Source: Noviherbaspirillum sp. (GTDB taxonomy: Bacteria > Pseudomonadota > Gammaproteobacteria > Burkholderiales > Burkholderiaceae_D). From it: 24,000 nucleotides of DNA. Location of the stretch: positions 12,584 through 36,583 of the forward strand of contig NZ_DAIUCO010000018.1 of the NCBI RefSeq assembly GCF_036846085.1. Direction: 5' to 3'. The notes under the pieces were generated by a model. That model had not been told where the DNA came from and did no database searches. It saw only the letters and a list, made by a program, of their open reading frames with translations. A program made the position numbers and the translations under genes. Positions 3,903 through 24,000 of the stretch are shown piece by piece; the stretch's first letter is position 1, and every line of letters begins with the position of its first letter.

Positions 3903-4859
3903 TTGCTTGCCTTTCAGCGGATATGGAAATGCGAATGTGCGTTATTCATTATTTAATATCAGCCTTTGCCATGTTCGGAACTCGTTTCATAAATAACCCC
4001 ATGCAACATTTTGTCACCCCTGTGTAGGGCAAAGCAGGGGTTTCGTGGAGCGAAGGCCCATGCTGCGTGACAGTCCGCGCCTGCAAGCACAGATGCGCGC
4101 TTAAAAAGGGGATTCAGGTTGACGGCGACGAGTGTAGCCAATTCTGCGTTTGTCATGCCGCTTTCGCCTTCAGCGTACCGACTGGGACCACCGGGTCCGC
4201 ATGGGGAAAAGAAGAGCAGTCATCTCCCAATAGTAGCAATGAAAAAGTGACTGCAAGTAGAGTTTGCCGCTCAAGAGTTAGCTGCTATCATCGATCGCAA
4301 CTGCTGCCCGCGCGGCGTCGACTCCGTAGCGAGACCGGGCAATGTCTACGATATCGAGGCCTGCTTAATCTGCCATGGTTGCTCGAACCAAGAAGCGGTA
4401 TCGCATCCCTTCTACTGCGGTAGGCGGCGCTCTTCACGTCCGCCGAATGCGGCAGGCTTCGTCCCGAAGTCTGGCGCCATGTGAAGCCGGCGGGTTGCCA
4501 AGGCAGCGATTTCCCGGCTTGTTGCCTGCAATCGGCAAAAGCGAGGTTCCGGCTTCTTCCCTATTCCGTGCCGCAATGGCAGCTACCGGAATAGACCTGC
4601 CCGCAATGAATTTCAATGGATTTTCGGCTGAATCCCCGGACGCTTTCCTTCGCCGGAATCAGCTTGATCTGTTCACCAGACTGAACCCTGCAATCCATTC
4701 AACCGACGGCCTCATTGCCCTGCATCCCGCCTGTATCGTTCAAGGCGGCGATCGTCAGGCCTGCAGGGTGATGGATGCCGCATCCATGCGTATCCGCCTG
4801 CAGCGGGCGATAGACGCCGCTGTTGTGGTTCGAAATGACATGCCATAAGGACGAACATC

Positions 4860-6671
4860 ATGGACAACGTATCGATCAGAATCCTGTTGATTGACGATAA
4901 TCCCGGCGATGCAATCCTGATCGAACGTATGCTGGCGCAGGTAAGAACGCCGCCAATGGAAGTCAGCTGGGCAAGCAACCTGAGTTCTGGCATCGAGCTG
5001 TTGAATGCGGGCAGCGCCGACCTGGTTTTGCTGGATCTGGGCCTGCCGGAAAGCATCGGCTTGGATACCGTCAGAAATTTGTACAGAAAGGTATCGACGA
5101 TACCTGCGGTCGTGGTGATGAGCGAACTCGCGGACGAGGACATCGCCGTGCAGGCAGTGCAGTGCGGCGCGCAAGACTATCTGATCAAAGGCGAGGTGAA
5201 CAGCGCCTTGCTGATCCGGTCCATCCGGTATGCACTGGAGCGCAGCCAGGCGAAAATTGCCCTGCAACAGGCCAACGACGAGCTGGAGCATCGGGTTCGG
5301 GAACGCACGACGCAGCTGGCGAAAGTCATCGAGGAACTCCATGAGGGCATCGCCAATCGGGAGCTTGCGGAACGCCGCATCCGCTACATGGCGCATTACG
5401 ATGAGCTGACCGGCCTGCCGAATCGGGTGCTGCTGCGCGACCGGATCATGCAGGCCATCGGCCAGGCTCGCTGCTGCAACACGCGCATCGCCATCGTGTT
5501 CATCGATCTGGATAATTTCAAGCACGTCAACGATTCGCTCGGGCACCAGGTCGGCGACCGCCTGCTGCAGGCTGTCGCCGGGCGGGTGCGTCAATGCCTG
5601 CGCAATGGCGATATCGGCGCGCGTCTTGGCGGCGACGAATTCGTGTTGATTCTTCCCCTCGTCGGCGAGGAAGACGATCCCGGTGCGATCGCGCAAGGGG
5701 TGCTGGACGCGCTGGCGCAGCCGTTCTCCATCGATGGCCACATGCTGCATATGGGCGCCAGCATCGGCATCAGCACCTATCCGAACGACGGCAATGATGT
5801 GGATACGCTGATGCGCGCCGCCGATACCGCGATGTATCACGCCAAGGGAAGAGGGCGCGGCAATTTCCAGTTTTTCACGCCGGCGCTCGACCGGGCCGCC
5901 CATGAGCGCCTGGACATCGAGAACCGGCTACGCAATGCGCTCGCGAACCATGAGTTCGTGCTCCATTATCAACCCCAGGTCGATATCAAAAGCGGCGCCA
6001 TCTTCAGCGCGGAAGCATTGCTGCGCTGGCGTCAGCCCGGCAAGGAGCCGGTCTCCTGCGAAGCATTCATCGCGAGCGCCGAGGACACCGGATTGATCCT
6101 GCCGCTCGGAGACTGGGTATTGCGGCAGGCATGCAATCAGCTGAAGCTATGGCGCGCCGAGGGTCATGCCGATCTACGGATCGCAGTCAACCTGTCGCCG
6201 CTCCAGATAGGCCGGCCCGGCTTTCCGGCGACGGTTGCCCGGATTCTTCATGAGACGGGATTGCCCGCCAATGCGCTGGATCTTGAAATCACCGAAGGTG
6301 TGATGATGCAGCGTAACGAGTTCACGCTTGCGACCCTGATCAGCCTCAGCACGATGGGCGTACAGCTTTCGGTTGATGATTTCGGCACCGGGTATTCCAG
6401 CTTGTCCTATCTGCAGCGTTTTCCTGTGCATGCGCTCAAAGTCGACCGCTCGTTCGTACGCGGCATCGGTCACGATATGAACAACACGACGCTGGTTACG
6501 GCAATCATCGCGATGGCAAAAAGCCTGCGGTTGAAGGTGCTCGCCGAAGGGGTCGAAACCGACGAGCAGGCGAGCTTTCTCCTGGCGCACGGCTGTCCGG
6601 CGGCACAGGGGTACTTTTACGGTGCCGCGGTATCGCCGGCAAATTTCTCCAGGCTCATGATGCGGTCCTGA
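4860..6671 (+). CDS. Response regulator with REC, GGDEF (diguanylate cyclase) and EAL (c-di-GMP phosphodiesterase) domains
   Basis: 603 aa. REC domain: ILLIDDNPGD, LVLLDLGLPE (acceptor Asp) and DYLIKG. A coiled-coil linker follows. GGDEF domain with an intact RLGGDEF and an RNGD I-site 5 residues upstream. EAL domain with EALLRW, DDFGTGYSSLSYL, KVDRSF and EGVET. AAGGA lies 8 nt upstream of ATG 4860. Confidence 0.95.
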   Translation: MDNVSIRILLIDDNPGDAILIERMLAQVRTPPMEVSWASNLSSGIELLNAGSADLVLLDLGLPESIGLDTVRNLYRKVSTIPAVVVMSELADEDIAVQAVQCGAQDYLIKGEVNSALLIRSIRYALERSQAKIALQQANDELEHRVRERTTQLAKVIEELHEGIANRELAERRIRYMAHYDELTGLPNRVLLRDRIMQAIGQARCCNTRIAIVFIDLDNFKHVNDSLGHQVGDRLLQAVAGRVRQCLRNGDIGARLGGDEFVLILPLVGEEDDPGAIAQGVLDALAQPFSIDGHMLHMGASIGISTYPNDGNDVDTLMRAADTAMYHAKGRGRGNFQFFTPALDRAAHERLDIENRLRNALANHEFVLHYQPQVDIKSGAIFSAEALLRWRQPGKEPVSCEAFIASAEDTGLILPLGDWVLRQACNQLKLWRAEGHADLRIAVNLSPLQIGRPGFPATVARILHETGLPANALDLEITEGVMMQRNEFTLATLISLSTMGVQLSVDDFGTGYSSLSYLQRFPVHALKVDRSFVRGIGHDMNNTTLVTAIIAMAKSLRLKVLAEGVETDEQASFLLAHGCPAAQGYFYGAAVSPANFSRLMMRS

Positions 6672-9420: not shown

Positions 9421-9449
9421 TTGGTGAAATTGATAGTTTTCAATATGCT
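9421..9449 (+). promoter_or_regulatory. Candidate sigma70-type promoter for katA (TTGGTG-N17-TATGCT)
   Basis: -35-like TTGGTG at 9421-9426, a 17-nt spacer, and -10-like TATGCT at 9444-9449, about 140 nt upstream of ATG 9589. Sequence match only. Confidence 0.3.
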
Positions 9450-9588
9450 TGCCGCTAACCAACCCATCCATGCGAGACGACCCCATGCACACCGCCGCAC
9501 ATACCGCCGATTCCATGGATGCAAGCTGGCTTGCCCTATTGGCAGCCATCGCGTTGGCTTACTGATCTTTCACCTTCACGAGGCATGC

Positions 9589-11037
9589 ATGAACGAGACA
9601 ACCACATTGACGACGGCTTCCGGCATACCGGTCGACGATAACCAGAACAGTTTGACCGCCGGTCCGCGTGGTCCGGTACTGCTGCAGGATTTTCACCTGA
9701 TCGAAAAGCTGCAGCATTTCAACCGCGAGCGGATTCCGGAGCGTGTGGTACATGCTAAAGGCTCGGGCGCCTACGGCACCTTCATCGTGACACACGACAT
9801 CAGCCATTTCACCAAGGCGAAGCTCTTTGCGCAGATCGGCAAGCAGACGGAAACCTTCGTGCGTTTCTCGACCGTCGGCGGCGAGCGCGGGTCAGCCGAT
9901 ACCGAGCGCGATCCGCGTGGCTTCGCGGTGCGTTTCTATACCGAGGAAGGCAACTGGGATCTGGCCGGCAACAACACGCCGATGTTTTTCATCAAGGACC
10001 CGATCAAGTTCCCGGATTTCGTGCATACGCAGAAGCGCTGCCCGATGACCAATCTGAAATCGGCGACGATGATGTGGGACTTCTGGAGCAATGCGCCGGA
10101 GTCGCTGCACCAGGTGACGATGCTGTTTTCCGATCGCGGCACGCCGGACGGCTACCGGCATATGGACGGCTTCGGCAGCCATACCTTCAGCCTCATCAAC
10201 CATGCCGGCCAGCGCGTCTGGGTCAAGTGGCACCTGAAAACCCGCCAGGGGATCAAGAACCTGTCGGCCGCCGACGCGGTCCGCCTTGCCGGCGAGGACC
10301 CGGACTATGCGCAGCGCGACCTGTTCAATGCGATCGCCGGCGGCGATTTCCCGAAGTGGGATGTGTTCATCCAGGTGATGCGCGAAGACGAGGCAGCCGC
10401 CTGGGCGGCGAGGACAGGCTGGAATCCGTTCGACCTGACCAAGATCTGGCCGCACAAGGATTTCCCGCGCATTCCCGTCGGCACGCTGGAACTGAACCGC
10501 AACCCGGAGAACTATCACGCCGAGGTGGAGCAGGTCGCGTTCTCGCCCGCCAACATCGTTCCCGGCATGGGCTATTCGCCGGACAAGATGCTGCAGGGAC
10601 GCTTATTCGCCTATCACGACGCACAGCTCTATCGCGTGGGTACCAATCACCAGCAGCTGCCGGTCAATCGTCCTCGCTGCCCGGTCAATCACCAGCAGCG
10701 CGACGGTGCGATGGCGATCAACAATTTCGGCTCGCAACCCAACTACGCGAATGTTCACGGCAAGGGTGTGCCGTCCCGCGGATTCGGACATGGCGATGCC
10801 GGCTGGCCGCTCGTCGGCGAAGCCGGACGTTACGATCCGCGCGGCGAGGACGACGACACGACCCAGGCCGGCAACCTGTTCCGCCTGATGAGCAGCGGCG
10901 AGCAGGACCGTCTTGCTACCAACATCGCCAATGCGATGCGCGGTGTTGCCGCCGAGATCCAGCAATGCCAGCTGGCGCATTTCGATAAGGCGGACCCGGC
11001 GTATGGCGCGGCGGTGAGGACCAAGCTGGCCGCCTGA
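9589..11037 (+). CDS. katA: Monofunctional heme catalase, small-subunit type (~482 aa)
   Basis: [18 protein letters not shown] (distal His), RFSTVGGERGSADTERDPRGFAVRFYTEEGNWDLAGNNTPMFFI, and RLFAYHDAQLYRVG (proximal Tyr). The ORF track starts at TTG 9421, but ATG 9589 (MNETTT...), with GAGG 5 nt upstream, gives the canonical catalase N-terminus. Confidence 0.95.
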   Translation: MNETTTLTTASGIPVDDNQNSLTAGPRGPVLLQDFHLIEKLQHFNRERIPERVVHAKGSGAYGTFIVTHDISHFTKAKLFAQIGKQTETFVRFSTVGGERGSADTERDPRGFAVRFYTEEGNWDLAGNNTPMFFIKDPIKFPDFVHTQKRCPMTNLKSATMMWDFWSNAPESLHQVTMLFSDRGTPDGYRHMDGFGSHTFSLINHAGQRVWVKWHLKTRQGIKNLSAADAVRLAGEDPDYAQRDLFNAIAGGDFPKWDVFIQVMREDEAAAWAARTGWNPFDLTKIWPHKDFPRIPVGTLELNRNPENYHAEVEQVAFSPANIVPGMGYSPDKMLQGRLFAYHDAQLYRVGTNHQQLPVNRPRCPVNHQQRDGAMAINNFGSQPNYANVHGKGVPSRGFGHGDAGWPLVGEAGRYDPRGEDDDTTQAGNLFRLMSSGEQDRLATNIANAMRGVAAEIQQCQLAHFDKADPAYGAAVRTKLAA

Positions 11038-11064
11038 TCAATCCTCTCCAGGCCGACTTAACGT

Positions 11065-11109
11065 GACGAAGGCGCTGCGGCATATCTGCCGCAGCGCCTT
11101 CGTCGTTTT
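11065..11109 (+). terminator. Rho-independent terminator after katA
   Basis: Perfect 18-bp stem: GACGAAGGCGCTGCGGCA (11065-11082) pairs with TGCCGCAGCGCCTTCGTC (11087-11104). The loop is TATC and the stem is followed by GTTTT. Confidence 0.85.
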
Positions 11110-11335
11110 GCATGCCGGTATTTATCCCCTGTCCCGGGTGGACACACATCGATCGAAGGAACTGATCGATTGCGATTTTCTCTATATGCCTACGGTGTTG
11201 ATCGCATTCTGCATTGCGCAGTAGAAAGCTATCGAACGCATCAAATGATCAAATTAGGAGGACCGGCGCGTCGCCGCGTATCTTGTCTGTCTCATCAGAT
11301 CATTCTCACGCCACTTCCGACCAGAGAGGAAAGCC

Positions 11336-12961
11336 ATGAATACCGATCGACTCGAGCGCCCGACGCTCACCACCCGCCAGGGGCATCCCGTCAGCGACAA
11401 CCAGGCATTGCGCTCCGTCGGCGAGCGCGGCCCGGCAACGCTGGAAAACTATCAGTTCATTGAAAAGATCACCCACTTCGACCGCGAACGCATTCCCGAG
11501 CGCGTCGTCCATGCGCGCGGCACCGGCGCCCATGGTTACTTCGAACCCTACGGCAAAATCGGCAACGAGCCCGTTTCGAAATACACGCGCGCAAGGGTGC
11601 TCAATGAAGTAGGCGTGCGCACGCCGATCTTCCTTCGCTTCTCTACCGTGATCGGTTCGAAGGATTCGCCGGAGACGGCGCGCGATCCCCGCGGCTTCGC
11701 GATCAAGTTCAAGACCGTCGAAGGCAACTGGGACCTCGTCGGCAATAACCTGAAGGTGTTTTTCATCCGAGATGCGATCAAGTTTCCGGACATGATCCAC
11801 GCCTTCAAGCCCGACCCGGCGACGAACCGGCAGGAGCCCTGGCGCTTCTATGACTTCGTCTCGCAGTCGCCGGAGGCGCTGCACATGGTTACCTGGGTCA
11901 AGAGCCCATGGGGTATTCCCGCCAACTATCGGGAGATGGAAGGCTCGGGCGTAAACACCTACAAGTTCGTCAACGACCAGGGCGTTGCCCATCTCGTCAA
12001 ATTCCACTTCCAGCCGAAGCAGGGTGTGCGCAATCTCACCAGTGCGCAGGCCGCCGAGATCCAGGCGCAGGAAGTCGGTCATGCGACAAAGGATTTGTAC
12101 GAGGCGATCGAGCGCGGCGATTTCCCGGAATGGGAGTTCTGCGTGCAATTGATGACCGACGACGAGCATCCCGAACTGGACTTCGATCCGCTCGATGACA
12201 CCAAGCGCTGGCCGGAAGACAAGTTCCCGCTGCTGCCGCTCGGCCGCATCGTGCTCGACCGCAATCCCGACAATGTCTTTGCCGAGACGGAGCAGTCGGC
12301 GTTCGGTACCGGTGTGCTGGTCGACGGCATCGATTTTTCCGACGACAAGATGCTGCAGGGGCGCACGTTGTCCTACTCGGATACCCAGCGTTACCGCGTC
12401 GGTCCCAATTACCTGCAACTGCCGATCAACGCGCCGCAGGAAAAAGCCCGCGCGCACACCAACCAGCAGGGCGGCGCCATGGCCTACTACGTCGACCCCA
12501 ACGGCGGCAACCGTCACATCAACTATGAGCCCAGCCTCATGGGCGGACTGCAGGAAGCGCCCAAGCCGGAAAAGGATTATCACCAGTGGGTGGAGGGCCA
12601 TCTCGGGCGCTACCAGACCACCCGCACCGCCGACGACTACAAGCAGGCGGGCGAGCGTTACCGGACCTTCGAGGAATGGGAGCGCGAGGACCTGGTCAAC
12701 AATATCGGCAACGACCTGAAGCAATGCCCGGAGCCGATCCAGCTGCGCATGGTCTGGCATCTGTGGCACTGCGATCCGGACTACGGCACCCGCGTGGCAA
12801 AGATCGCCGGCATCGATCTGTCGCGGGCGAAGGACCTGCCGCCGCTGCCGGGCAAACCGGCGCCGCACCAGGCACGCCAGGCGACGACGTACACCAGCGG
12901 GCAGAAAGAGGAATCCGCAGGCGTGGAGACGCGTTCGGAAGAAACGAGCGGCGCCAAGTAG
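11336..12961 (+). CDS. katB: Monofunctional heme catalase, second paralog (541 aa, KatB-like) with a Pro/Lys-rich C-terminal tail
   Basis: [62 protein letters not shown] and [24 protein letters not shown] precedes ATG 11336. The katB symbol follows the P. aeruginosa katB-ankB arrangement, because an ankyrin gene follows. Confidence 0.93.
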
Positions 12962-13032
12962 CAACAGGCACTGCAACGCTACCGGAGATGCGCGAGCGGC
13001 GGATGGCCGTGCATCTCCCTCGAGGAGTGAAC

Positions 13033-13587
13033 ATGCAGGAACCTGCCAACGAAACACCATCGAACGAAACACAACCGGCGGCCGCCAGGATACCGGACGA
13101 AGAAACGATTGCATTTGCGCAGAAGGTATTTCATCTCGTCCGGAGCGGCGATGCCGTCATACTGGCCGCGCTGCTGGAACAGGGGCTGCCGCCGAATCTA
13201 TGCAACCACAAGGGCGACAGCCTGCTGATGCTGGCCAGCTACCATGGACATGTCGATGCCGCGCGGATCCTGCTGGAGTACGGGGCCGACACCGAAATCC
13301 GCAACGACCATGGACAGACACCGATCGCCGGCGCTGCCTATAAAGGCGATGTGGCGATGGTGAGACTGCTGCTGGAGCACGGCGCCGATGTGGAAGGCGC
13401 CGCCCCGGACGGCAAGACCGCGCTGATGCTGGCGGCGATGTTCAACCGCGTCGATGTGGTTGACGTGCTGGTCGCGGAAGGCGCGAACATCGAGGCGCGC
13501 GATGCGAAGGGCATGTCGGCGCTGGATGCGGCGCGGGCGATGGGCGCGGCGGATACGCCGGCGCGGCTGGTGAGGGTGGTGCATTAA
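13033..13587 (+). CDS. ankB: Ankyrin-repeat protein, AnkB-like catalase accessory candidate (184 aa)
   Basis: Three to four ankyrin repeats: GDSLLMLASYHGHVDAARILLEYGADTEIRN, HGQTPIAGAAYKGDVAMVRLLLEHGADVEGAA, DGKTALMLAAMFNRVDVVDVLVAEGANIEARD, and KGMSALDAARAMG. The ORF track begins at 12586 inside katB. ATG 13033, with GAGGAG 5 nt upstream, is the credible start. Confidence 0.85.
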   Translation: MQEPANETPSNETQPAAARIPDEETIAFAQKVFHLVRSGDAVILAALLEQGLPPNLCNHKGDSLLMLASYHGHVDAARILLEYGADTEIRNDHGQTPIAGAAYKGDVAMVRLLLEHGADVEGAAPDGKTALMLAAMFNRVDVVDVLVAEGANIEARDAKGMSALDAARAMGAADTPARLVRVVH

Positions 13588-16191: not shown

Positions 16192-17442
16192 CTACTTGCA
16201 ATCGGCCATACCCTGCGTATCCGGCGACAGCGCCCAGTCGGCATGTTTTCCAGCAGCGTTGGTCGGCAACCGGTAACCGAAAGTGAACGCTTTCGGGCGC
16301 TCCGGCGTCGCCAGATGCGTCAGCGCCCAAGCCTCAAGCCGGATGCGCAGTCCGGCAAGGTCGGCATCGGGATGGCGAGGGACGATGAATGCCTTGAGCC
16401 GGTTGCCTTCATCGGCGCGCATCAGCCGCACCGACGCGTCGAACACGTCCGGATGCTGCATCAAGGCATGCCGTACTTTGGCCGGGAAGACATTGATGCC
16501 GCCAACCTGCACCGCATCGTCGATACGGCCAGTCGGGAGAAAAGCGCGTGCATCCTTCCACGCCAGCGTATCCCGGCATGCAATCACTTCCCGCCGCCCA
16601 TCGGCGTGACGGCGCTTCAGTGCGCCTGGCTGTCCGTCGATCCGCTCCCAATGGGAAAGGAGGCGGTATTGGTCCGTTGCCCGCACCCGCCAGCCCACGC
16701 CGGCGGTTTCCGAGCTGCCGTAGATTTGCACCAGGGTCTCCATGCCGGCATGGACAAGCGCGATGCTGACGTCATCCGGGCAGGGGGCGGTCGAGGTGAC
16801 GCCCATGACACCGGCGGGCATGGAAGGCAACAGCCGTACGGCCGCGCGCCAGAATTCCGGATGCCCGATCACGAGGTCGCCGTCCCGCAGTTCGCGTGCC
16901 AGCGCGGCAGGCGAACTGCCTCGCAAATCGATGACAGGTACGCAGGACAACCCGAGCATACGGGGCAGCAGGATGGTGAAGATGAATCCGTAGATGTGGT
17001 GGCTGGGGACGGCGGACAGGATGCGCCGGCGCGCCGGAAACAGCGCCGCCAGCTCCCGCGCCTCCTGCAGGAGTATGGCTGCAGGATGTGTGCACCGCTT
17101 GGGCGTGCCGGTGCTGCCCGATGTCGTGAAGGTGAGCCGCTCCGAAAAGCGCTGCAGTCCCGCGTGCGCCACCGCGATCCAGTCTTCCATCGTCGGTCGG
17201 GCCAGCAAGTAGTCTTCGATGCCGGATTCCTGCAAATGCAGGGCTTCCGCAAGCGCACTGGCAATCGCCAGGAGTTCGAGCGAGTCGACGCCGAGATCCC
17301 GGACGATGTGCGTGTCATTTCGCCATGGCCGCTGCGGAAGCGACGCGCCGGTCGGCCGCAGCAGCGCAACCTCGGCGGCGACGAGGTCGCTGATGAATCG
17401 CCGCAGGACTTCCTCGTCATCCCACCATGCCATGTCGGCCAT
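16192..17442 (-). CDS. pcl: 4-coumarate-CoA ligase-like adenylating enzyme of the PYP-activation type (pCL), with an N-terminal carrier-protein-like region
   Basis: 416 aa. The start lies 3 nt after the pyp stop. ANL motifs present: TFTTSGSTGTPKR, QIYGSSETAG, GRIDDAVQVGGINVFP and LPTNAAGKHADW. The N-terminal ~95 aa contain VRDLGVDSLELLAIASALAEAL. The function is assigned from its position next to pyp and from the known pyp-pcl linkage in other bacteria. Confidence 0.8.
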   Translation of the reverse strand: MADMAWWDDEEVLRRFISDLVAAEVALLRPTGASLPQRPWRNDTHIVRDLGVDSLELLAIASALAEALHLQESGIEDYLLARPTMEDWIAVAHAGLQRFSERLTFTTSGSTGTPKRCTHPAAILLQEARELAALFPARRRILSAVPSHHIYGFIFTILLPRMLGLSCVPVIDLRGSSPAALARELRDGDLVIGHPEFWRAAVRLLPSMPAGVMGVTSTAPCPDDVSIALVHAGMETLVQIYGSSETAGVGWRVRATDQYRLLSHWERIDGQPGALKRRHADGRREVIACRDTLAWKDARAFLPTGRIDDAVQVGGINVFPAKVRHALMQHPDVFDASVRLMRADEGNRLKAFIVPRHPDADLAGLRIRLEAWALTHLATPERPKAFTFGYRLPTNAAGKHADWALSPDTQGMADCK

Positions 17443-17445
17443 GAT

Positions 17446-17832
17446 TCAGATTCGCTTGACGAAAATCCAGTAGGAGCCGCCGCTCAGGGCTTTTTTCATG
17501 TGCACCTTCACCTTGGTCGGTTTCATCTCGTGATCGAACAGGTACTCGAACATGGTATTGAGATTGTCCGCTTTCACGCCGGCGTCGAATACGCCCTTGA
17601 AGCGGGTGGTTGCCGTGCAGGGCGCCACGTCACGGAAAAAATTCTTGCCGATCACCGATGCCGGATCGCGTCCGGTGATTGCACCTTCCGCAGCGTTGTA
17701 CTTTAGGACGGTGCCGTTCCTGTCGAGTTCAATCGCGCCGAAGGCAAGCTTGTCGATCTCTTTTCCCGACATTCGGTTCATGACGTTCTCGATATCGGTT
17801 TTGCCGAAACCGATCAGCTCAAGTTCTTTCAT
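17446..17832 (-). CDS. pyp: Photoactive yellow protein (PAS-fold blue-light photoreceptor, p-coumaric acid chromophore)
   Basis: 128 aa. [50 protein letters not shown] and [39 protein letters not shown] align gap-free with H. halophila PYP as I remember it. Equivalents of Tyr42, Glu46, Thr50, Arg52 and Cys69 are all present (Y45, E49, T53, R55, C72). GAGGA lies 7 nt upstream of the ATG. Confidence 0.95.
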
Positions 17833-17857
17833 ACTGGATCCTCAAGGATTGAATGTT

Positions 17858-17867: not shown

Positions 17868-18122
17868 CTCTGAATGAAATATTTCCCTGCGGTAACATCA
17901 CCCATTCTGGCAGCTTGATTTCCTTGAGTCAAGTTTGTATTAGACAAAATGAGCTTTTTGTACCTCGGTTGTCCATAATTCCCAACCAGTCATTCACGAT
18001 TAAAATGCTTATCTTCATTGAGGTTTATCGAGAAGAAGCTGTTTGAAACGTTATTTTCGATATCATCGGCAAAAATAGTGTATTTCTGATTTGGCCTATA
18101 CAAAGGCGCTTTGCATGCGGTT

Positions 18123-19108: not shown

Positions 19109-19195
19109 GCACGGAAAAATCGGAAGCCGTAATATATCCGGGCGTCCAACGCACCACCCCGCCCGAACCATAACCACAATCTGGAGTTGAGAGAC

Positions 19196-19699
19196 ATGGC
19201 GAAACTGAACGTGAACGGAACATTGCGTGAATTTGAGGCGGAGGGTGATACGCCGCTGCTTTGGGTGCTGCGAGAGCAGCTCGGCCTGACGGGAACGAAG
19301 TACGGCTGCGGCGTAGCGATGTGCGGCGCCTGCACCGTGCATATCGACGGCGAACCGACCCGCAGCTGCGTGCGTCCGGTCTCGTCGGTCAATGCGGAGC
19401 AGAAGATCGTGACGATCGAGGGCCTGTCCAAGGACGGCTCGCATCCGGTGCAGAAGGCCTGGGTGGCGCTCGATGTGCCGCAATGCGGGTTTTGCCAGAG
19501 CGGGATGATCATGGCGGCCGCCGCGCTGCTCAAGCAGAAACCGAATCCCACCGACGCCGACATCAACGAATCCATCACCAATATCTGCCGCTGCGGCACC
19601 TACAACCGGGTGCGCGCCGCGATCAAGGTCGTTGCCAAGGGCGGGGATGCGCGCAGCGCCGGCCTGTCGATCAAGCATGTTGACGGGAGCACGACATGA
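19196..19699 (+). CDS. [2Fe-2S]-binding small subunit of an IorAB / aldehyde oxidase-type molybdenum hydroxylase
   Basis: The ORF track starts at TTG 19187. ATG 19196 (MAKLNVNG...) has GGAG 9 nt upstream. Two cluster motifs are present: [22 protein letters not shown] and [10 protein letters not shown]...CRCGTY. The stop overlaps the next start (ATGA at 19696-19699). Confidence 0.9.
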
Positions 19700-21897
19700 G
19701 CCGCGCCGTCTCCGATACCGCCGTGGCGAGCCCGTCGCGGCGCCGCTTTCTCGGTACCTCGGCTGCCGCGTTCGGCGGACTGATGGTCGGCTTTCACGTA
19801 CCGTTGACCGCCGCCGCGCAGAATGCGGCGGCCGGCGCGGTGCCGGAGGTTAATGCCTGGGTAGTGGTGAAGCCGGACGACACCGTGGTCATCCGCATTG
19901 CCCGCTCCGAGATGGGACAGGGGTCGCTGACCGGGCTGGCCCAGCTCGTCGCGGAAGAGCTGGACTGCGATTGGGCGAAAGTCACCACCGAATATCCGAC
20001 GCCCGGACAGAACCTTGCGCGTAACCGTGCCTGGGGCAATTTTTCGACCGGCGGCAGCCGCGGCATACGCGAGTCGCATGACTACGTGCGCAAGGGCGGC
20101 GCGGCGGCCCGCATGATGCTCGTGCAGGCGGCCGCGGACGAATGGAAGGTGCCGGCCGCCGAATGCCGCGCCGCCAACAGTGTCATCACCCATGGCCCGT
20201 CGAACCGCACCACTACCTATGGCAAGGTTGCCGCTGCCGCTGCGAAGCTGACGCCCCCGACGGATGTGGTGTTGAAAGACCCGAAAGAGTGGAAGGTCGC
20301 CGGCAAGCGCCTGGCACGCCTCGATACGGTGGAAAAGACCACCGGTGCGCAGATCTACGGCATGGACCTCACAATGCCCGGGATGCTGAACGCGGCGATC
20401 AAGGATTGCCCGGTATTCGGCGGCAGGGTAAAAAGCTTCAAGGCCGCCGAAATCCAAGGCCGCCCCGGCGTAAAGAAAGTGGTGCAGGTCGGCGACAGCG
20501 CCGTCGCCGTGGTGGCGGATACATGGTGGCACGCCAAGACGGCGCTGGACGCACTGACGATCGAATGGGACAACGGGCCGAACGCCAAGGTATCGAGCGC
20601 CGGCATCGCCGAGACGCTGAAGGCGGGACTTGACGCGAACGACGCGGCGGTCGGCAACCAGAACGGCGACGTGCGCGCCGCGCTGAATTCCGCGGCGCGC
20701 AAGATCGAAGCGGTTTATTCCTACCCATACCAGAACCACGCGACGATGGAGACCATGAACGCCACGGCGAAATGGACACCGGAGCGCTGCGAAGTCTGGA
20801 CGCCGACGCAGAACGGCGAAGCGGCATTGGCCGCCGCGGCCGAGGCGGCGGAACTGCCGCCGTCGAAATGCGAGGTGTACAAGATTCACCTCGGCGGCGG
20901 CTTTGGCCGGCGCGGCGCGGTACACGACTGGGTGCGGCAGGCGGTGGCGATCGCGAAGGAAATGCCCGGCACGCCCATCAAGCTGATCTGGTCGCGCGAA
21001 GAGGACATGCTGCATGGCCGCTACCATCCGGTCACGCAATGCAAGCTGACGGCCGGTCTCGATGCGCAGGGCAATATCACCGGACTCCATATGCGCATTT
21101 CCGGTCAGTCCATCCTCGCAGGGGTGTTCCCCCAGAACATCAAGGACGGCAAGGATCCGGTCGTGTTCCAGGGCCTGAATCCGCCCGGCCCGGAAGCATC
21201 GATCGGTTACAGTTTCCCGAACCTCCTGATCGACCACGCGATGCGCAATCCGCCGGTGCCGCCCGGCTTCTGGCGCGGCGTGAACCTGAACCAGAACACC
21301 ATCTATCTCGAATGCTTTCTCGACGAGATCGCTCATGCGACGAAGCAGGATCCGCTGGCCCTGCGCCGCAAGCTGATGGCCAATCATCCGAAGCATCTCG
21401 CGGTACTGAACGCGGCCGCCGATCGCGCCGGCTGGGACAAGCCGCCGCCGAAGGGCGTGTTCCGCGGACTGGCGCAGACGATGGGCTTCGGCAGCTATGT
21501 GGCGGCGGTGGCGGAAGTATCGGTCAGCGACGAGGGTGGCCTGAAAATCCATCGCATCGTGGCGGCCACCGACCCGGGCCATGCATTGAACCCGCAGCAG
21601 ATCGAAGCCCAGGTGGAAGGGTCGTTCGTGTACGGCCTGTCGGCGGCGCTGTATGGCGAATGCACGGTCAAGGACGGCCGCATGGAGCAGGACAACTTCA
21701 CCAGCTACCAGGTGATGCGGATGGATGAAATGCCGCCGGTGGAAACCGTGCTCGTTCCTTCGGGCGGATTCTGGGGCGGGGTGGGCGAGCCGACCATCGC
21801 GGTGGCGGCGCCGGCGGTGCTCAATGCCATCTTCGCCGCCACCGGCAAGCGCATCCGCGACTTGCCGTTAAAAAACCATAGCCTGAAGAAAGCGTAG
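19696..21897 (+). CDS. Molybdopterin-binding large subunit of an IorAB / xanthine dehydrogenase-family oxidoreductase, TAT-exported
   Basis: 733 aa. Twin-arginine signal [22 protein letters not shown]. Its length and sequence blocks ([47 protein letters not shown]) fit the CoxL/IorB family. GGGAG lies 6 nt upstream of the ATG. Confidence 0.9.
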
Positions 21898-21952
21898 GGC
21901 ATGAGCATGCGGAGGCGCGAATGCGTCTCCGCGATACCGCCGGACACAAGCC

Positions 21953-22417
21953 ATGTGGTTATTCGTCACCGCGCTTTTACTCGCATCAAGCGGCACCGCA
22001 TGGGCTGCCGGCGAGACGGCCTTGCCTTACCGCATCGTCGGCGATGCGATACCCGATTCCCTGACCGGCGCGCCCGGTGACGCGGCAAGGGGCCGTGCGA
22101 TCGTTGCGAACCGGCAGGTCGGCCTGTGCCTGTTGTGCCATGCCGGGCCGCTGCCGGAAGAACGCTTCCAAGGCAATCTCGCACCCGACCTCGCCGGGAC
22201 GGGCGCGCGCTGGAGCGAAGGGCAATTGCGCCTGCGCATCGTCGATGCCGGCCGCGTCAATCCGGCGACCATCATGCCGCCGTATTACCGTACCGATGGC
22301 TTGGTCCGGGTCAATCCCGCGGTGCAGGGAAAGCCCATACTGGATGCAAGGCAGATCGAAGATGTCGTTGCCTACCTGCGCACATTGCGCGAGCCGCCAC
22401 AACAGAAAGCTGAGTGA
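21953..22417 (+). CDS. soxX: SoxX-like monoheme c-type cytochrome
   Basis: 154 aa. Signal peptide MWLFVTALLLASSGTAWA. A single CLLCH heme motif. APDLAGTG...LRLRIVDAGRVNPATIMPPYY...LDARQIEDVVAYLRTL follows the SoxX pattern. The stop overlaps the next gene's start (TGATG). Confidence 0.8.
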   Translation: MWLFVTALLLASSGTAWAAGETALPYRIVGDAIPDSLTGAPGDAARGRAIVANRQVGLCLLCHAGPLPEERFQGNLAPDLAGTGARWSEGQLRLRIVDAGRVNPATIMPPYYRTDGLVRVNPAVQGKPILDARQIEDVVAYLRTLREPPQQKAE

Positions 22418-22899
22418 TGTCCGATCCACATGAATTTTCTTCCGGAACCGACCGCAAGCGCCGCAGGCTGCTGGCGGCAGGGGCCGGCCTCGGGGCCTGG
22501 CTGATCGTCCGGCCCGCAAGCGCGACGCCGGATGAGATGGCCGCCGCCATCAGGTCCTATACCGGCGGTGCGAAAGTGAATGCCGGCAAGGTGAAGCTCG
22601 ACGTGGCGGCGCTGGTCGATAACGGCAACGCCGTACCGGTCACGGTTGCCGTCGACAGTCCCATGACCGCCGCCGACCATGTCGCCGCCATCGCGATCTT
22701 CAACGAGCGCAATCCGCAGACCGATGTCGCCCGCTTTACCCTCGGGCCGCGCGCCGGCAAGGCGAGCGTATCCACCCGCATGCGGCTGGCGACGTCGCAG
22801 AAGCTGACGGCGGTGGCGAAACTGAGCGACGGCAGTTACTGGTCCCACACCATCGACGTGGTGGTGACCCTGGCTGCCTGCATCGAAGGCGAGACCTGA
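22417..22899 (+). CDS. SoxY-related sulfur-carrier-like protein with a non-canonical C-terminal arm (...VVVTLAACIEGET)
   Basis: ORF track 22414 (GTG); the ATG is at 22417. TAT-type signal DRKRRRLLAAGAGLGAWLIVRPASA. The body (KVKLDVAALVDNGNAVPVTVAVDSPMTAADHVAAIAIFNERNP...AVAKLSDGSYWSHTIDVVVT) follows SoxY. The canonical C-terminal GGCGG is replaced by AACIEGET. I recall an NCBI family name 'SoxY-related AACIE arm protein' but cannot verify it here. Confidence 0.85.
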   Translation: MSDPHEFSSGTDRKRRRLLAAGAGLGAWLIVRPASATPDEMAAAIRSYTGGAKVNAGKVKLDVAALVDNGNAVPVTVAVDSPMTAADHVAAIAIFNERNPQTDVARFTLGPRAGKASVSTRMRLATSQKLTAVAKLSDGSYWSHTIDVVVTLAACIEGET

Positions 22900-22900
22900 C

Positions 22901-23224
22901 ATGGCACGCACACTCATCAAAGTACCGGCCACCGCGAAGCGTGGCGAGGTGATTGAAATCCGCACGCTCATCGCCCATCCGATGGAAACCGGCTACCGCC
23001 CCGGCGCCGACGGCCAGGTCGTGCCGCGCGACATCCTGCGGCGCTTCACCTGCCGTTACAACGGCGAGGTGGTGTTCAGCGCCGAATTGTTCCCGGCCAT
23101 CGCTGCCAATCCCAGCATCAACTTCCATACCGTCGCCACCGACAGCGGCACGCTGGCGTTCACCTGGGAGGGCGACAAGGGATTCACGCAGACGGCGTCG
23201 GTGGCGATCACCGTCACCGGCTAG
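22901..23224 (+). CDS. soxZ: SoxZ-like thiosulfate-oxidation carrier complex subunit
   Basis: 107 aa. KVPATAKRGEVIEIRTLIAHPMETGYR...RFTCRYNGEVVFSAELFPAIAANP is the SoxZ pattern. It starts 1 nt after the SoxY-like stop. Confidence 0.9.
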   Translation: MARTLIKVPATAKRGEVIEIRTLIAHPMETGYRPGADGQVVPRDILRRFTCRYNGEVVFSAELFPAIAANPSINFHTVATDSGTLAFTWEGDKGFTQTASVAITVTG

Positions 23225-23229
23225 GCGCG

Positions 23230-24000
23230 ATGCGGATGGCCGCGATGCTGATGGTCCTTGCCGCTTGCGGCCCGTCGGCACATGCGCAGCCGACGGGCGA
23301 TAGCCGCCTGCCCGGTTCCGCGTTCATGGGCACATCGACGCAGAAGATGCAGCGCGACGACAGCCTCAATCCCGGCATGCTGTGGGTGCAGGAGGGTGAG
23401 GCGCTGTGGAGCCGTAGTGCGGGGAAGAGCGATCGTTCCTGCGCAAGCTGTCATGGCGATGCAAAGACATCGATGCGCGGCGTGGCGGCGCGCTATCCCG
23501 CCTTCGATGCGAAGAGCAAGCGCCTGCTGAATCTCGGCCAGCGCATCAACCAGTGCCGGCAGGAGCGCCAGCAGGCGCCGGCCTTCGCGGCGGAAAGCGA
23601 AGCCTTGCTCGGGCTGGAGAGTTATGTCGCCCTGCAGTCGCGCGGCATGCCGGTGACGCCACCGGGCGATGCGGCGCTGCAGGCGTTTTATGCGCGGGGC
23701 GAGCAGCGCTGGCGACAGCGCATGGGGCAGCTCAATCTCTCCTGCGCGCAATGCCATGATGACTATTGGGGCAAGCGACTTGGGGGCAGCATCATCCCGC
23801 AGGGCCATGCCAGCGGATATCCAATCTATCGTCTCGAATGGCAGGGGATGGGATCGTTGCAGCGGCGCTTGCGGAATTGCATGACAGGCGTGAGGGCGGA
23901 GCCGTTCGCGCTCGGGTCGCAGGAGCTGGTGGAACTGGAGTTGTACCTGGCGAAGAGGGCGAAGGGGATGGCGATGGAGGCGCCGGGGGTGAGGCCTTGA
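23230..24000 (+). CDS. soxA: SoxA-like diheme c-type cytochrome
   Basis: 256 aa with signal peptide MRMAAMLMVLAACGPSAHA. Two heme motifs, CASCHG and CAQCHD. The conserved LQRRLRNCMTGVRAEP block contains the active-site Cys. The stop codon occupies the last three bases of the window. Confidence 0.9.
   Translation: MRMAAMLMVLAACGPSAHAQPTGDSRLPGSAFMGTSTQKMQRDDSLNPGMLWVQEGEALWSRSAGKSDRSCASCHGDAKTSMRGVAARYPAFDAKSKRLLNLGQRINQCRQERQQAPAFAAESEALLGLESYVALQSRGMPVTPPGDAALQAFYARGEQRWRQRMGQLNLSCAQCHDDYWGKRLGGSIIPQGHASGYPIYRLEWQGMGSLQRRLRNCMTGVRAEPFALGSQELVELELYLAKRAKGMAMEAPGVRP

Follow-up and report, generated by a model that had tools for sequence, protein, structure and literature searches.

The pyp-pcl operon

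The 24,000-nt stretch considered here (the window; contig NZ_DAIUCO010000018.1 of assembly GCF_036846085.1) comes from a genome of Noviherbaspirillum, a genus placed in the Oxalobacteraceae (Burkholderiales). On its minus strand it carries a gene for a photoactive yellow protein (PYP), pyp, at 17446..17832, followed by pcl, encoding a PYP-associated 4-coumarate-CoA ligase (pCL), at 16192..17442. These two genes, the promoter region preceding them, and a palindrome in that region which may connect them to the LitR/CarH family of B12-binding regulators are the subject of this work.

The pyp gene is an ATG-to-TGA open reading frame (ORF) of 128 aa, with a single PAS/PYP domain. An initial annotation, made from the sequence alone, had called it a stand-alone PYP with a complete p-coumarate pocket, and this is borne out; both peptides quoted there occur in the translation. 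The equivalog model TIGR02373 (photoactive yellow protein) matches it over 123 of 124 model positions (2-124); the score of 181.9 bits (E = 4.2e-54) exceeds the curated cutoff of 143.05. Searched with phmmer against the PDB, it matches PYP chains of Halorhodospira halophila (1OTD/1KOU-type entries) with E-values of 1e-52 to 1e-53, a single alignment free of gaps pairing its residues 5-128 with chain residues 2-125. At the offset of +3 given in the initial annotation, gapless identity to H. halophila PYP is 81 of 125 residues (64.8%). By sequence, the window PYP is a single PAS domain of about 125 aa with an N-terminal cap, and is predicted to fold as in the solved structures.

The residues that the initial annotation had singled out all map as claimed. 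Cys72, equivalent to H. halophila Cys69, is the thioester site for p-coumarate; Tyr45 and Glu49 (Tyr42 and Glu46) are the hydrogen-bonding partners of the phenolate; and the tuning residues Thr50 and Arg52 correspond to Thr53 and Arg55. Also conserved are a third tuning residue, Met103 (Met100), and Ile34, Asn46, Phe65, Val69, Ala70, Pro71, Thr73, Tyr97, Phe99, Asp100, and Trp122. The sole notable change in the active-site region is His101, at the position of H. halophila Tyr98; among 116 close homologues of 128 aa, this position is Tyr in 106 and His in 9, making His a minority variant. The substitution (codon region 17530-17544) adjoins Met100 in the H. halophila numbering, and is accompanied by Thr95 to Leu and Gln99 to Glu. 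Mutations of M100 and Y98 in H. halophila PYP are reported to lengthen the lifetime of pB greatly (preprint 10.1101/2021.06.01.446672); by analogy with the Y98 case, His101 may lengthen the signaling-state lifetime, and a slower photocycle is predicted for the window PYP. As a natural Tyr98-to-His variant, it offers an inexpensive way to study kinetic tuning.

The pcl product (416 aa, with Pfam AMP-binding and AMP-binding_C domains) scores 340.2 bits on TIGR02372, just over the cutoff of 334.7, in agreement with the adjacent ligase that had been proposed. Its start codon lies 3 nt after the pyp stop, implying co-transcription and translational coupling; a Shine-Dalgarno sequence (GAGGA, 17839..17843, minus strand) can be read 6 nt upstream of the pyp ATG. 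That these two ORFs are a PYP and its pCL is, on this sequence evidence, almost certain, and the locus is very probably a canonical two-gene pyp-pcl operon of a betaproteobacterial, Oxalobacteraceae genome. A terminator scan 3′ of pcl did no better than on shuffled sequences, and both of its matches lie inside the pcl coding region. The overall GC content of pyp is 0.535, a low value that comes from codon positions 1 and 2; at third positions (GC3) it is 0.73, compared with 0.73-0.83 in neighboring genes. Recent horizontal transfer of pyp was considered and rejected on this basis: with GC3 matching that of its neighbors, the gene looks native.

The complete pyp-pcl-tal chromophore operon known from H. 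halophila is not present here. No window ORF matches Lyase_aromatic (PF00221), and there is no tblastn match in the window to the TAL of Glaciimonas; TAL is likewise missing beside pyp in every Noviherbaspirillum locus compared. As far as chromophore supply is concerned this counts against a working photoreceptor, and could suggest a non-photosensory PAS protein, remaining in the apo form in an organism unable to make p-coumarate. Such a role is highly improbable. All pocket residues, including Cys72, Tyr45, and Glu49, are invariant in the 116 close homologues (116/116), which argues for purifying selection for p-coumarate binding, and the locus keeps a dedicated pCL gene whose translation is coupled to that of pyp. 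Absence of TAL is moreover the norm: TAL is found in just 5-10% of pyp neighborhoods, and pCL in about 30% (PMC9664959, PMC12826048). The same surveys propose a TAL elsewhere in the genome, or p-coumarate uptake from the environment. With no TAL in the window, the p-coumarate source for this PYP would lie outside it.

A conserved palindrome at the pyp promoter

The intergenic region upstream of pyp spans 307 bp and has a GC content of 40%. A sigma-70-type promoter is predicted within it on the minus strand (17904..17932), with a -35 box TTGACT (17932-17927), a 17-nt spacer, and a TG-extended -10 box CAGAAT (17909-17904). When the upstream regions of the window pyp and 12 close relatives are aligned, the TTGAC of the -35 box is conserved among the orthologous regions of Noviherbaspirillum, Herbaspirillum, and Glaciimonas. 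Directly upstream of it the alignment shows a palindrome with the consensus TTTGTCC-A-GGACAAA, that is, TTTGTC-N3-GACAAA. The window copy, an operator-like palindrome of putative LitR/CarH type (TTTGTCTAATACAAA on the minus strand, 17934..17948), lies 1 nt upstream of the -35 box and has one mismatch. At up to one mismatch, this is the one match to TTTGTC-N3-GACAAA in the window, against 0.02 expected by chance.

A wider comparison used 80 pyp loci from other genomes, taken with 10 kb on either side of the gene (1.43 Mb in total). The exact motif occurs 24 times in this set: 21 copies are just upstream of pyp, two are in Glaciimonas intergenic regions, and one is elsewhere. By comparison, 29 control palindromes with permuted half-sites gave 0 matches in the same sequence. 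The pyp promoters that carry it (among loci L002-L019 and L024-L069) belong to the Oxalobacteraceae and to Verticiella and Pusillimonas; loci of the set from Ramlibacter, Idiomarina, Halomonas, and the Alphaproteobacteria gave no match.

In Glaciimonas (loci L003 and L004, 4570-10390) there are two pyp genes. One is in a TAL-pyp-pcl string; the second, of 130 aa, is divergent and followed by PAS-GGDEF and GGDEF-EAL genes, with the LitR-type palindrome in the shared intergenic region.

A second, degenerate palindrome (ATGTTACCGCAGGGAAATAT, minus strand, 17879..17898) covers about +1 to +19 of the predicted transcript. In three Noviherbaspirillum species it is a perfect 8-bp stem, ATGTTTTC-N4-GGAAACAT, just downstream of the -10 box (L006, about 892-911; L013, about 697-716; L016, about 9919-9938). 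Its role may be that of a second operator or of a 5′ mRNA hairpin. In RNA folding predictions the hairpin forms in L006, L013, and L016 but not in the window, and none of the z-scores is significant.

Association of the palindrome with LitR/CarH

What might bind the first palindrome is suggested by Massilia. In this genus the gene order is pyp-pcl-(TAL)-litR, where the litR product has MerR_1, B12-binding_2, and B12-binding domains; it is found near pyp in 9 Massilia loci by clustering of flanking ORFs, and in 10 by tblastn. All nine of the clustered regulators have Wx9EH and ExHxxG motifs, which are taken here to be signatures of the adenosyl-B12 (AdoB12)-dependent CarH/LitR photoreceptor-repressors. 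The 10 genomic loci that encode a LitR homologue no more than 10 kb from pyp are all from Massilia, and every one has one or more palindromes upstream of pyp; in Massilia a copy stands on either side of the pyp promoter, the two being about 51 bp apart.

Operons of the Massilia type were seen at L024, L027, L030, L038, L040, L044, L052, L053, L061, and L069 (about 11.6-14.1 kb), and further pyp-pcl-(TAL)-litR operons of this type at L087, L089, L111, L122, and L129. A gene for a MASE11-PAS-GGDEF-EAL protein often converges on them.

The association also holds where litR is distant from pyp. In Accumulibacter and a Rhodocyclales genome, LitR orthologues (61% identity) are encoded by genes divergent from a cluster including DUF1365, CFA-synthase-family, amine-oxidase, and glutathione-peroxidase genes, much like the light-induced region of Pseudomonas LitR. 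The sole palindrome copies in these 15-kb litR loci are in the litR promoter region, one exact and one with one mismatch, 74 bp apart. LitRs linked to pyp and those that are not have nearly the same helix-turn-helix (HTH) region, and their B12 motifs do not vary.

Independent data come from metagenomes, scanned for two exact palindromes 30-60 bp apart. With 24 specified bases, well under one chance match is estimated for such pairs; at least 120 contigs carry them, of which 80 were analyzed. Among the 51 of these with a GC content of 0.54 or more, a LitR homologue is encoded in 42, and in 39 cases the gene starts within 600 bp of the sites. A pyp gene starts at the paired sites in four of the 51: three show the order pyp-pcl-(TAL)-litR, and the fourth is truncated where its contig stops.

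By this co-occurrence, TTTGTC-N3-GACAAA is probably the operator of the betaproteobacterial AdoB12-LitR/CarH clade. PYP of the Oxalobacteraceae and allied Betaproteobacteria would then belong to the AdoB12-LitR/CarH light regulon, a reading to which a probability of roughly 0.5-0.6 is assigned here. For the window itself, there is perhaps an even chance that the pyp promoter is under the control of a LitR encoded outside the window. Assignment of the palindrome to a LitR/CarH repressor makes it probable that pyp-pcl is repressed in the dark and induced by light.

Several observations weigh against this assignment. The window has a single palindrome, mismatched in its GAC core, where litR-linked promoters have two copies, and no litR is found in its 24 kb. 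The consensus promoter scan is by itself not above background (2 found, against 0.8 +/- 0.9 expected). The remaining 29 metagenome contigs, with GC contents below 0.54 (L093-L167), carry paired palindromes without LitR; their flanks are heterogeneous (peptidase S46, LysM/SLT, YchF, polysaccharide deacetylase), and the pairs are more frequent than chance, so that the motif is not exclusive to LitR across all bacteria. The published operator of Pseudomonas class II LitR is different, TGTACA-N12-TGTACA (PMC9758184), and the palindrome sequence was not found in the searchable literature.

It is a serious alternative, if at somewhat under even odds, that the palindrome is not a LitR site here, being vestigial or the target of some other regulator, and that pyp-pcl is constitutive or under unrelated control. 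The points just listed on the window copy, the low-GC contigs, and the Pseudomonas operator are as this would predict, and the Noviherbaspirillum promoters have the different second palindrome described above in place of a second LitR-type site. Against it, the position of the palindrome beside the -35 box is kept across genera, its occurrence in 1.43 Mb of loci is almost exclusive to pyp/TAL promoters, and independent data (the unlinked litR loci and the metagenome contigs) show its tight coupling to litR.

Linkage of pyp and litR invites another possibility, that PYP is a direct light-dependent anti-repressor of LitR, as the short LOV protein PmSB-LOV is for the class II LitR PmlR2. That pair is a precedent, LitR being the target of a free-standing photoreceptor there (PMC9758184). 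The pyp-pcl-(TAL)-litR genes form one co-directional, closely spaced string, presumably an operon, in 10 Massilia genomes and several metagenome contigs. If this were so, LitR would be the long-sought partner of single-domain PYP. It is an improbable arrangement, however: the Massilia-type LitRs have an intact AdoB12 photoreceptor signature (Wx9EH and ExHxxG) and should thus need no PYP helper; most palindrome-bearing pyp loci, including that in the window, have no litR nearby; and autoregulation of an operon that happens to include pyp explains the linkage data.

If LitR does control pyp transcription, one photoreceptor would gate synthesis of another. A link between PYP and LitR/CarH was not found in the searchable literature, and the PYP surveys PMC9664959 and PMC12826048 make no mention of MerR, LitR, CarH, or B12. 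It is a modest side finding, of two photoreceptor systems physically linked in Massilia-type operons; the LitR-type operator at pyp promoters, together with litR in the Massilia pyp operons, makes it a concrete and testable one.

Search for a signaling partner

The initial annotation had noted that the downstream partner of single-domain PYPs is unresolved, a statement repeated in 2025 (PMC12826048); a candidate binding protein does exist for Rhodobacter capsulatus PYP. Surveys list GGDEF/EAL proteins, histidine kinases, and methyl-accepting chemotaxis proteins (MCPs) as recurrent PYP associates, with the signaling chain as the main gap (PMC9664959, PMC12826048). Conservation of neighbors was tested by tblastn of 20 window proteins against the 80 pyp loci, and by de novo clustering of flanking ORFs in these.

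Among the window neighbors, the pcl gene alone recurs: a homologue (34-63% identity) is directly downstream of pyp in 78 of the 80 other genomes. Clustering finds three other recurrent families, TAL (18 loci), GGDEF-EAL proteins (16), and the MerR/B12-binding regulator LitR (9), none of which is in the immediate context of pyp in the window. The 18 relatives in which TAL adjoins pyp include no Noviherbaspirillum. The GGDEF-EAL proteins near pyp in relatives have varied sensor modules (none, HAMP, MASE11-PAS, or PAS-PAS) and no receiver domain. In the operon and conserved flank of the window pyp, the 80-locus comparison finds no GGDEF/EAL, histidine kinase, or MCP gene.

A partner might nevertheless be encoded by one of the window neighbors, the candidates being a TAXI-family TRAP binding protein, a GntR/FCD regulator, a TctC protein, or a receiver-GGDEF-EAL protein. 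They are physically close to pyp, and GGDEF/EAL proteins are, as just noted, recurrent associates of PYP (PMC12826048). This is very unlikely. TAXI, GntR, TctC, RraA, and IorAB homologues are all absent within 10 kb of pyp in the 80 other genomes, and since none recurs beside pyp, window neighbors other than pcl are not partner candidates. GGDEF-EAL proteins are near pyp in 16-17 of the 80 loci, which by a rough estimate is about chance for large, GGDEF-rich genomes, and the sensor modules of the relatives' proteins differ from the receiver type in the window. The window receiver-GGDEF-EAL gene (4860-6671) was rejected as a partner on the last of these grounds and on its distance, about 11 kb and eight genes, from pyp.

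The output partner of the window PYP is thus not encoded by any conserved neighbor. The recurrent neighbors in relatives suggest cyclic di-GMP enzymes, in line with published suggestions.

Proposed mechanism

From what is known of the family, pCL would adenylate p-coumarate, either produced by a TAL whose gene lies outside the window or taken up from the surroundings, and convert it to p-coumaroyl-CoA, which would acylate Cys72 of the apo-PYP. Holo-PYP would be expected to absorb near 445 nm; characterized PYPs with Thr at position 50 absorb at 445 +/- 3 nm (PMC9664959, PMC12826048). Blue light would isomerize the chromophore, Glu49 would protonate the phenolate, and PYP would enter a partly unfolded signaling state. 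Met103 is present for recovery, which His101, in place of H. halophila Tyr98, may delay by lengthening the signaling-state lifetime. Transcription would start from the predicted sigma-70-type promoter, with the TTTGTC-N3-GACAAA palindrome abutting its -35 box; a LitR encoded outside the window would repress pyp-pcl in the dark and release it in the light.

Distribution and novelty of the PYP

The window PYP is genuine but ordinary, already known in kind, and correctly auto-annotated. An identical protein (100%) is already in NCBI/UniRef under the name "photoactive yellow protein [Noviherbaspirillum sp.]," and the same search found 1,588 homologue clusters. Among these, proteins of 128 aa that share 75-86% identity with the window PYP are densely represented, coming from Glaciimonas, Herbaspirillum, Herminiimonas, Massilia, Bordetella, and Pusillimonas. 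Confirmed relatives number at least 319 in 185,579 species genomes, a lower bound since the species-genome scan was pattern-based. PYP is therefore rare and patchily distributed, as had been stated, when taken as a fraction of genomes, but not otherwise.

Published surveys cover 789 (PMC9664959) and 984 (PMC12826048) homologues, and already describe PYPs of non-phototrophs as well as pyp-pcl operons without TAL. With the protein already named and both operon type and host type described, the window PYP is not novel. Taken alone it contributes little, joining a family in which about a thousand homologues have already been catalogued. No experimental data on any Oxalobacteraceae PYP were found in the searchable literature.

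The initial annotation had also presented the locus as a useful case for finding the partners and role of PYP in a probable chemotroph. Its premise holds: the region has no photosynthesis genes, and the neighbors are solute-binding proteins, a molybdenum oxidoreductase, and Sox genes. That the locus is unusual or specially useful is not supported, given the existing annotation and surveys, and the absence of any neighbor other than pcl that recurs beside pyp in the 80 genomes; its significance was overstated.

Other genes in the window

Upstream of the pyp intergenic region is the divergent gene for the TAXI-family TRAP solute-binding protein, and downstream the GntR/FCD regulator gene is convergent on pyp-pcl. 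Other window genes encode a TctC/Bug binding protein, an RraA-like protein, an AI-2E transporter, a periplasmic binding protein, ThiD, and the receiver-GGDEF-EAL protein, as well as those described next. A scan of the whole window found no Rfam family at the gathering threshold.

Two catalase genes in tandem (9421-11037 and 11336-12961) precede an ankyrin-repeat ORF (12586-13587) which, as called, overlaps the second of them; its true start is probably later than 12586. The arrangement of two catalases and an ankyrin-repeat protein (9421-13587) resembles that of katB-ankB. At 19187-24000 is a pair of genes for an IorA/IorB-like 2Fe-2S and molybdopterin oxidoreductase, followed by SoxX, SoxY, and SoxA; soxZ is probably in the gap at 22900-23230. 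These Sox genes suggest a thiosulfate-oxidizing capacity in this Noviherbaspirillum. At the other end, a 506-aa protein with a Haem_oxygenas_2 (iron-containing redox enzyme) domain is encoded on the minus strand (29-1549). Two ORFs, 1699-2418 (239 aa) and 4375-4848 (157 aa), have no Pfam match.

Comparison with known systems

The closest well-characterized counterpart is H. halophila PYP: like that in the window it is a single domain of about 125 aa, the two aligning without gaps at 64.8% identity, and it has pcl immediately downstream (operon: PMC12826048). The pockets are identical (Tyr42, Glu46, Thr50, Arg52, Cys69, Phe62, Val66, Ala67, Pro68, Tyr94, Phe96, and Met100 in H. halophila). The window PYP differs in having three extra N-terminal residues and the substitutions Tyr98 to His101, Thr95 to Leu98, and Gln99 to Glu102. 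Its operon, unlike the H. halophila pyp-pcl-tal, has no tal, and has a LitR-type palindrome in its promoter. The hosts also differ, a non-phototrophic soil-type betaproteobacterium here and a halophilic purple sulfur bacterium there.

The window PYP also resembles those of other non-phototrophs (Idiomarina loihiensis, and the Burkholderiales of PMC9664959 and PMC12826048), which are likewise stand-alone proteins of chemotrophs; their genes have a pcl close by and, in most cases, lack a TAL. The 80 relatives include loci of Idiomarina and Aliidiomarina, at 65-71% identity, and the I. loihiensis PYP has been linked to light-regulated biofilm.

The regulator found in the relatives resembles class I LitR/CarH, with a MerR HTH, B12-binding_2 and B12-binding domains, and the Wx9EH and ExHxxG motifs. 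Its gene looks autoregulatory, with paired operators bracketing the promoter, and the divergent CFA-synthase/DUF1365/amine-oxidase cluster resembles the Pseudomonas light regulon. Compared with known LitR/CarH regulons, the window has a putative site without the regulator; pyp as a regulon member was not found in the searchable literature.

PmSB-LOV and PmlR2 of Pseudomonas mendocina (PMC9758184) are alike in that a small blue-light PAS photoreceptor, again a stand-alone protein, is genetically linked to a repressor of the LitR family, and are the nearest precedent for signaling by a photoreceptor with no output domain. The PYP-LitR gene linkage is seen in the Massilia-type operons, not in the window. 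PmlR2 does not bind B12 and depends on its LOV protein, whereas the Massilia-type LitRs look self-sufficient.

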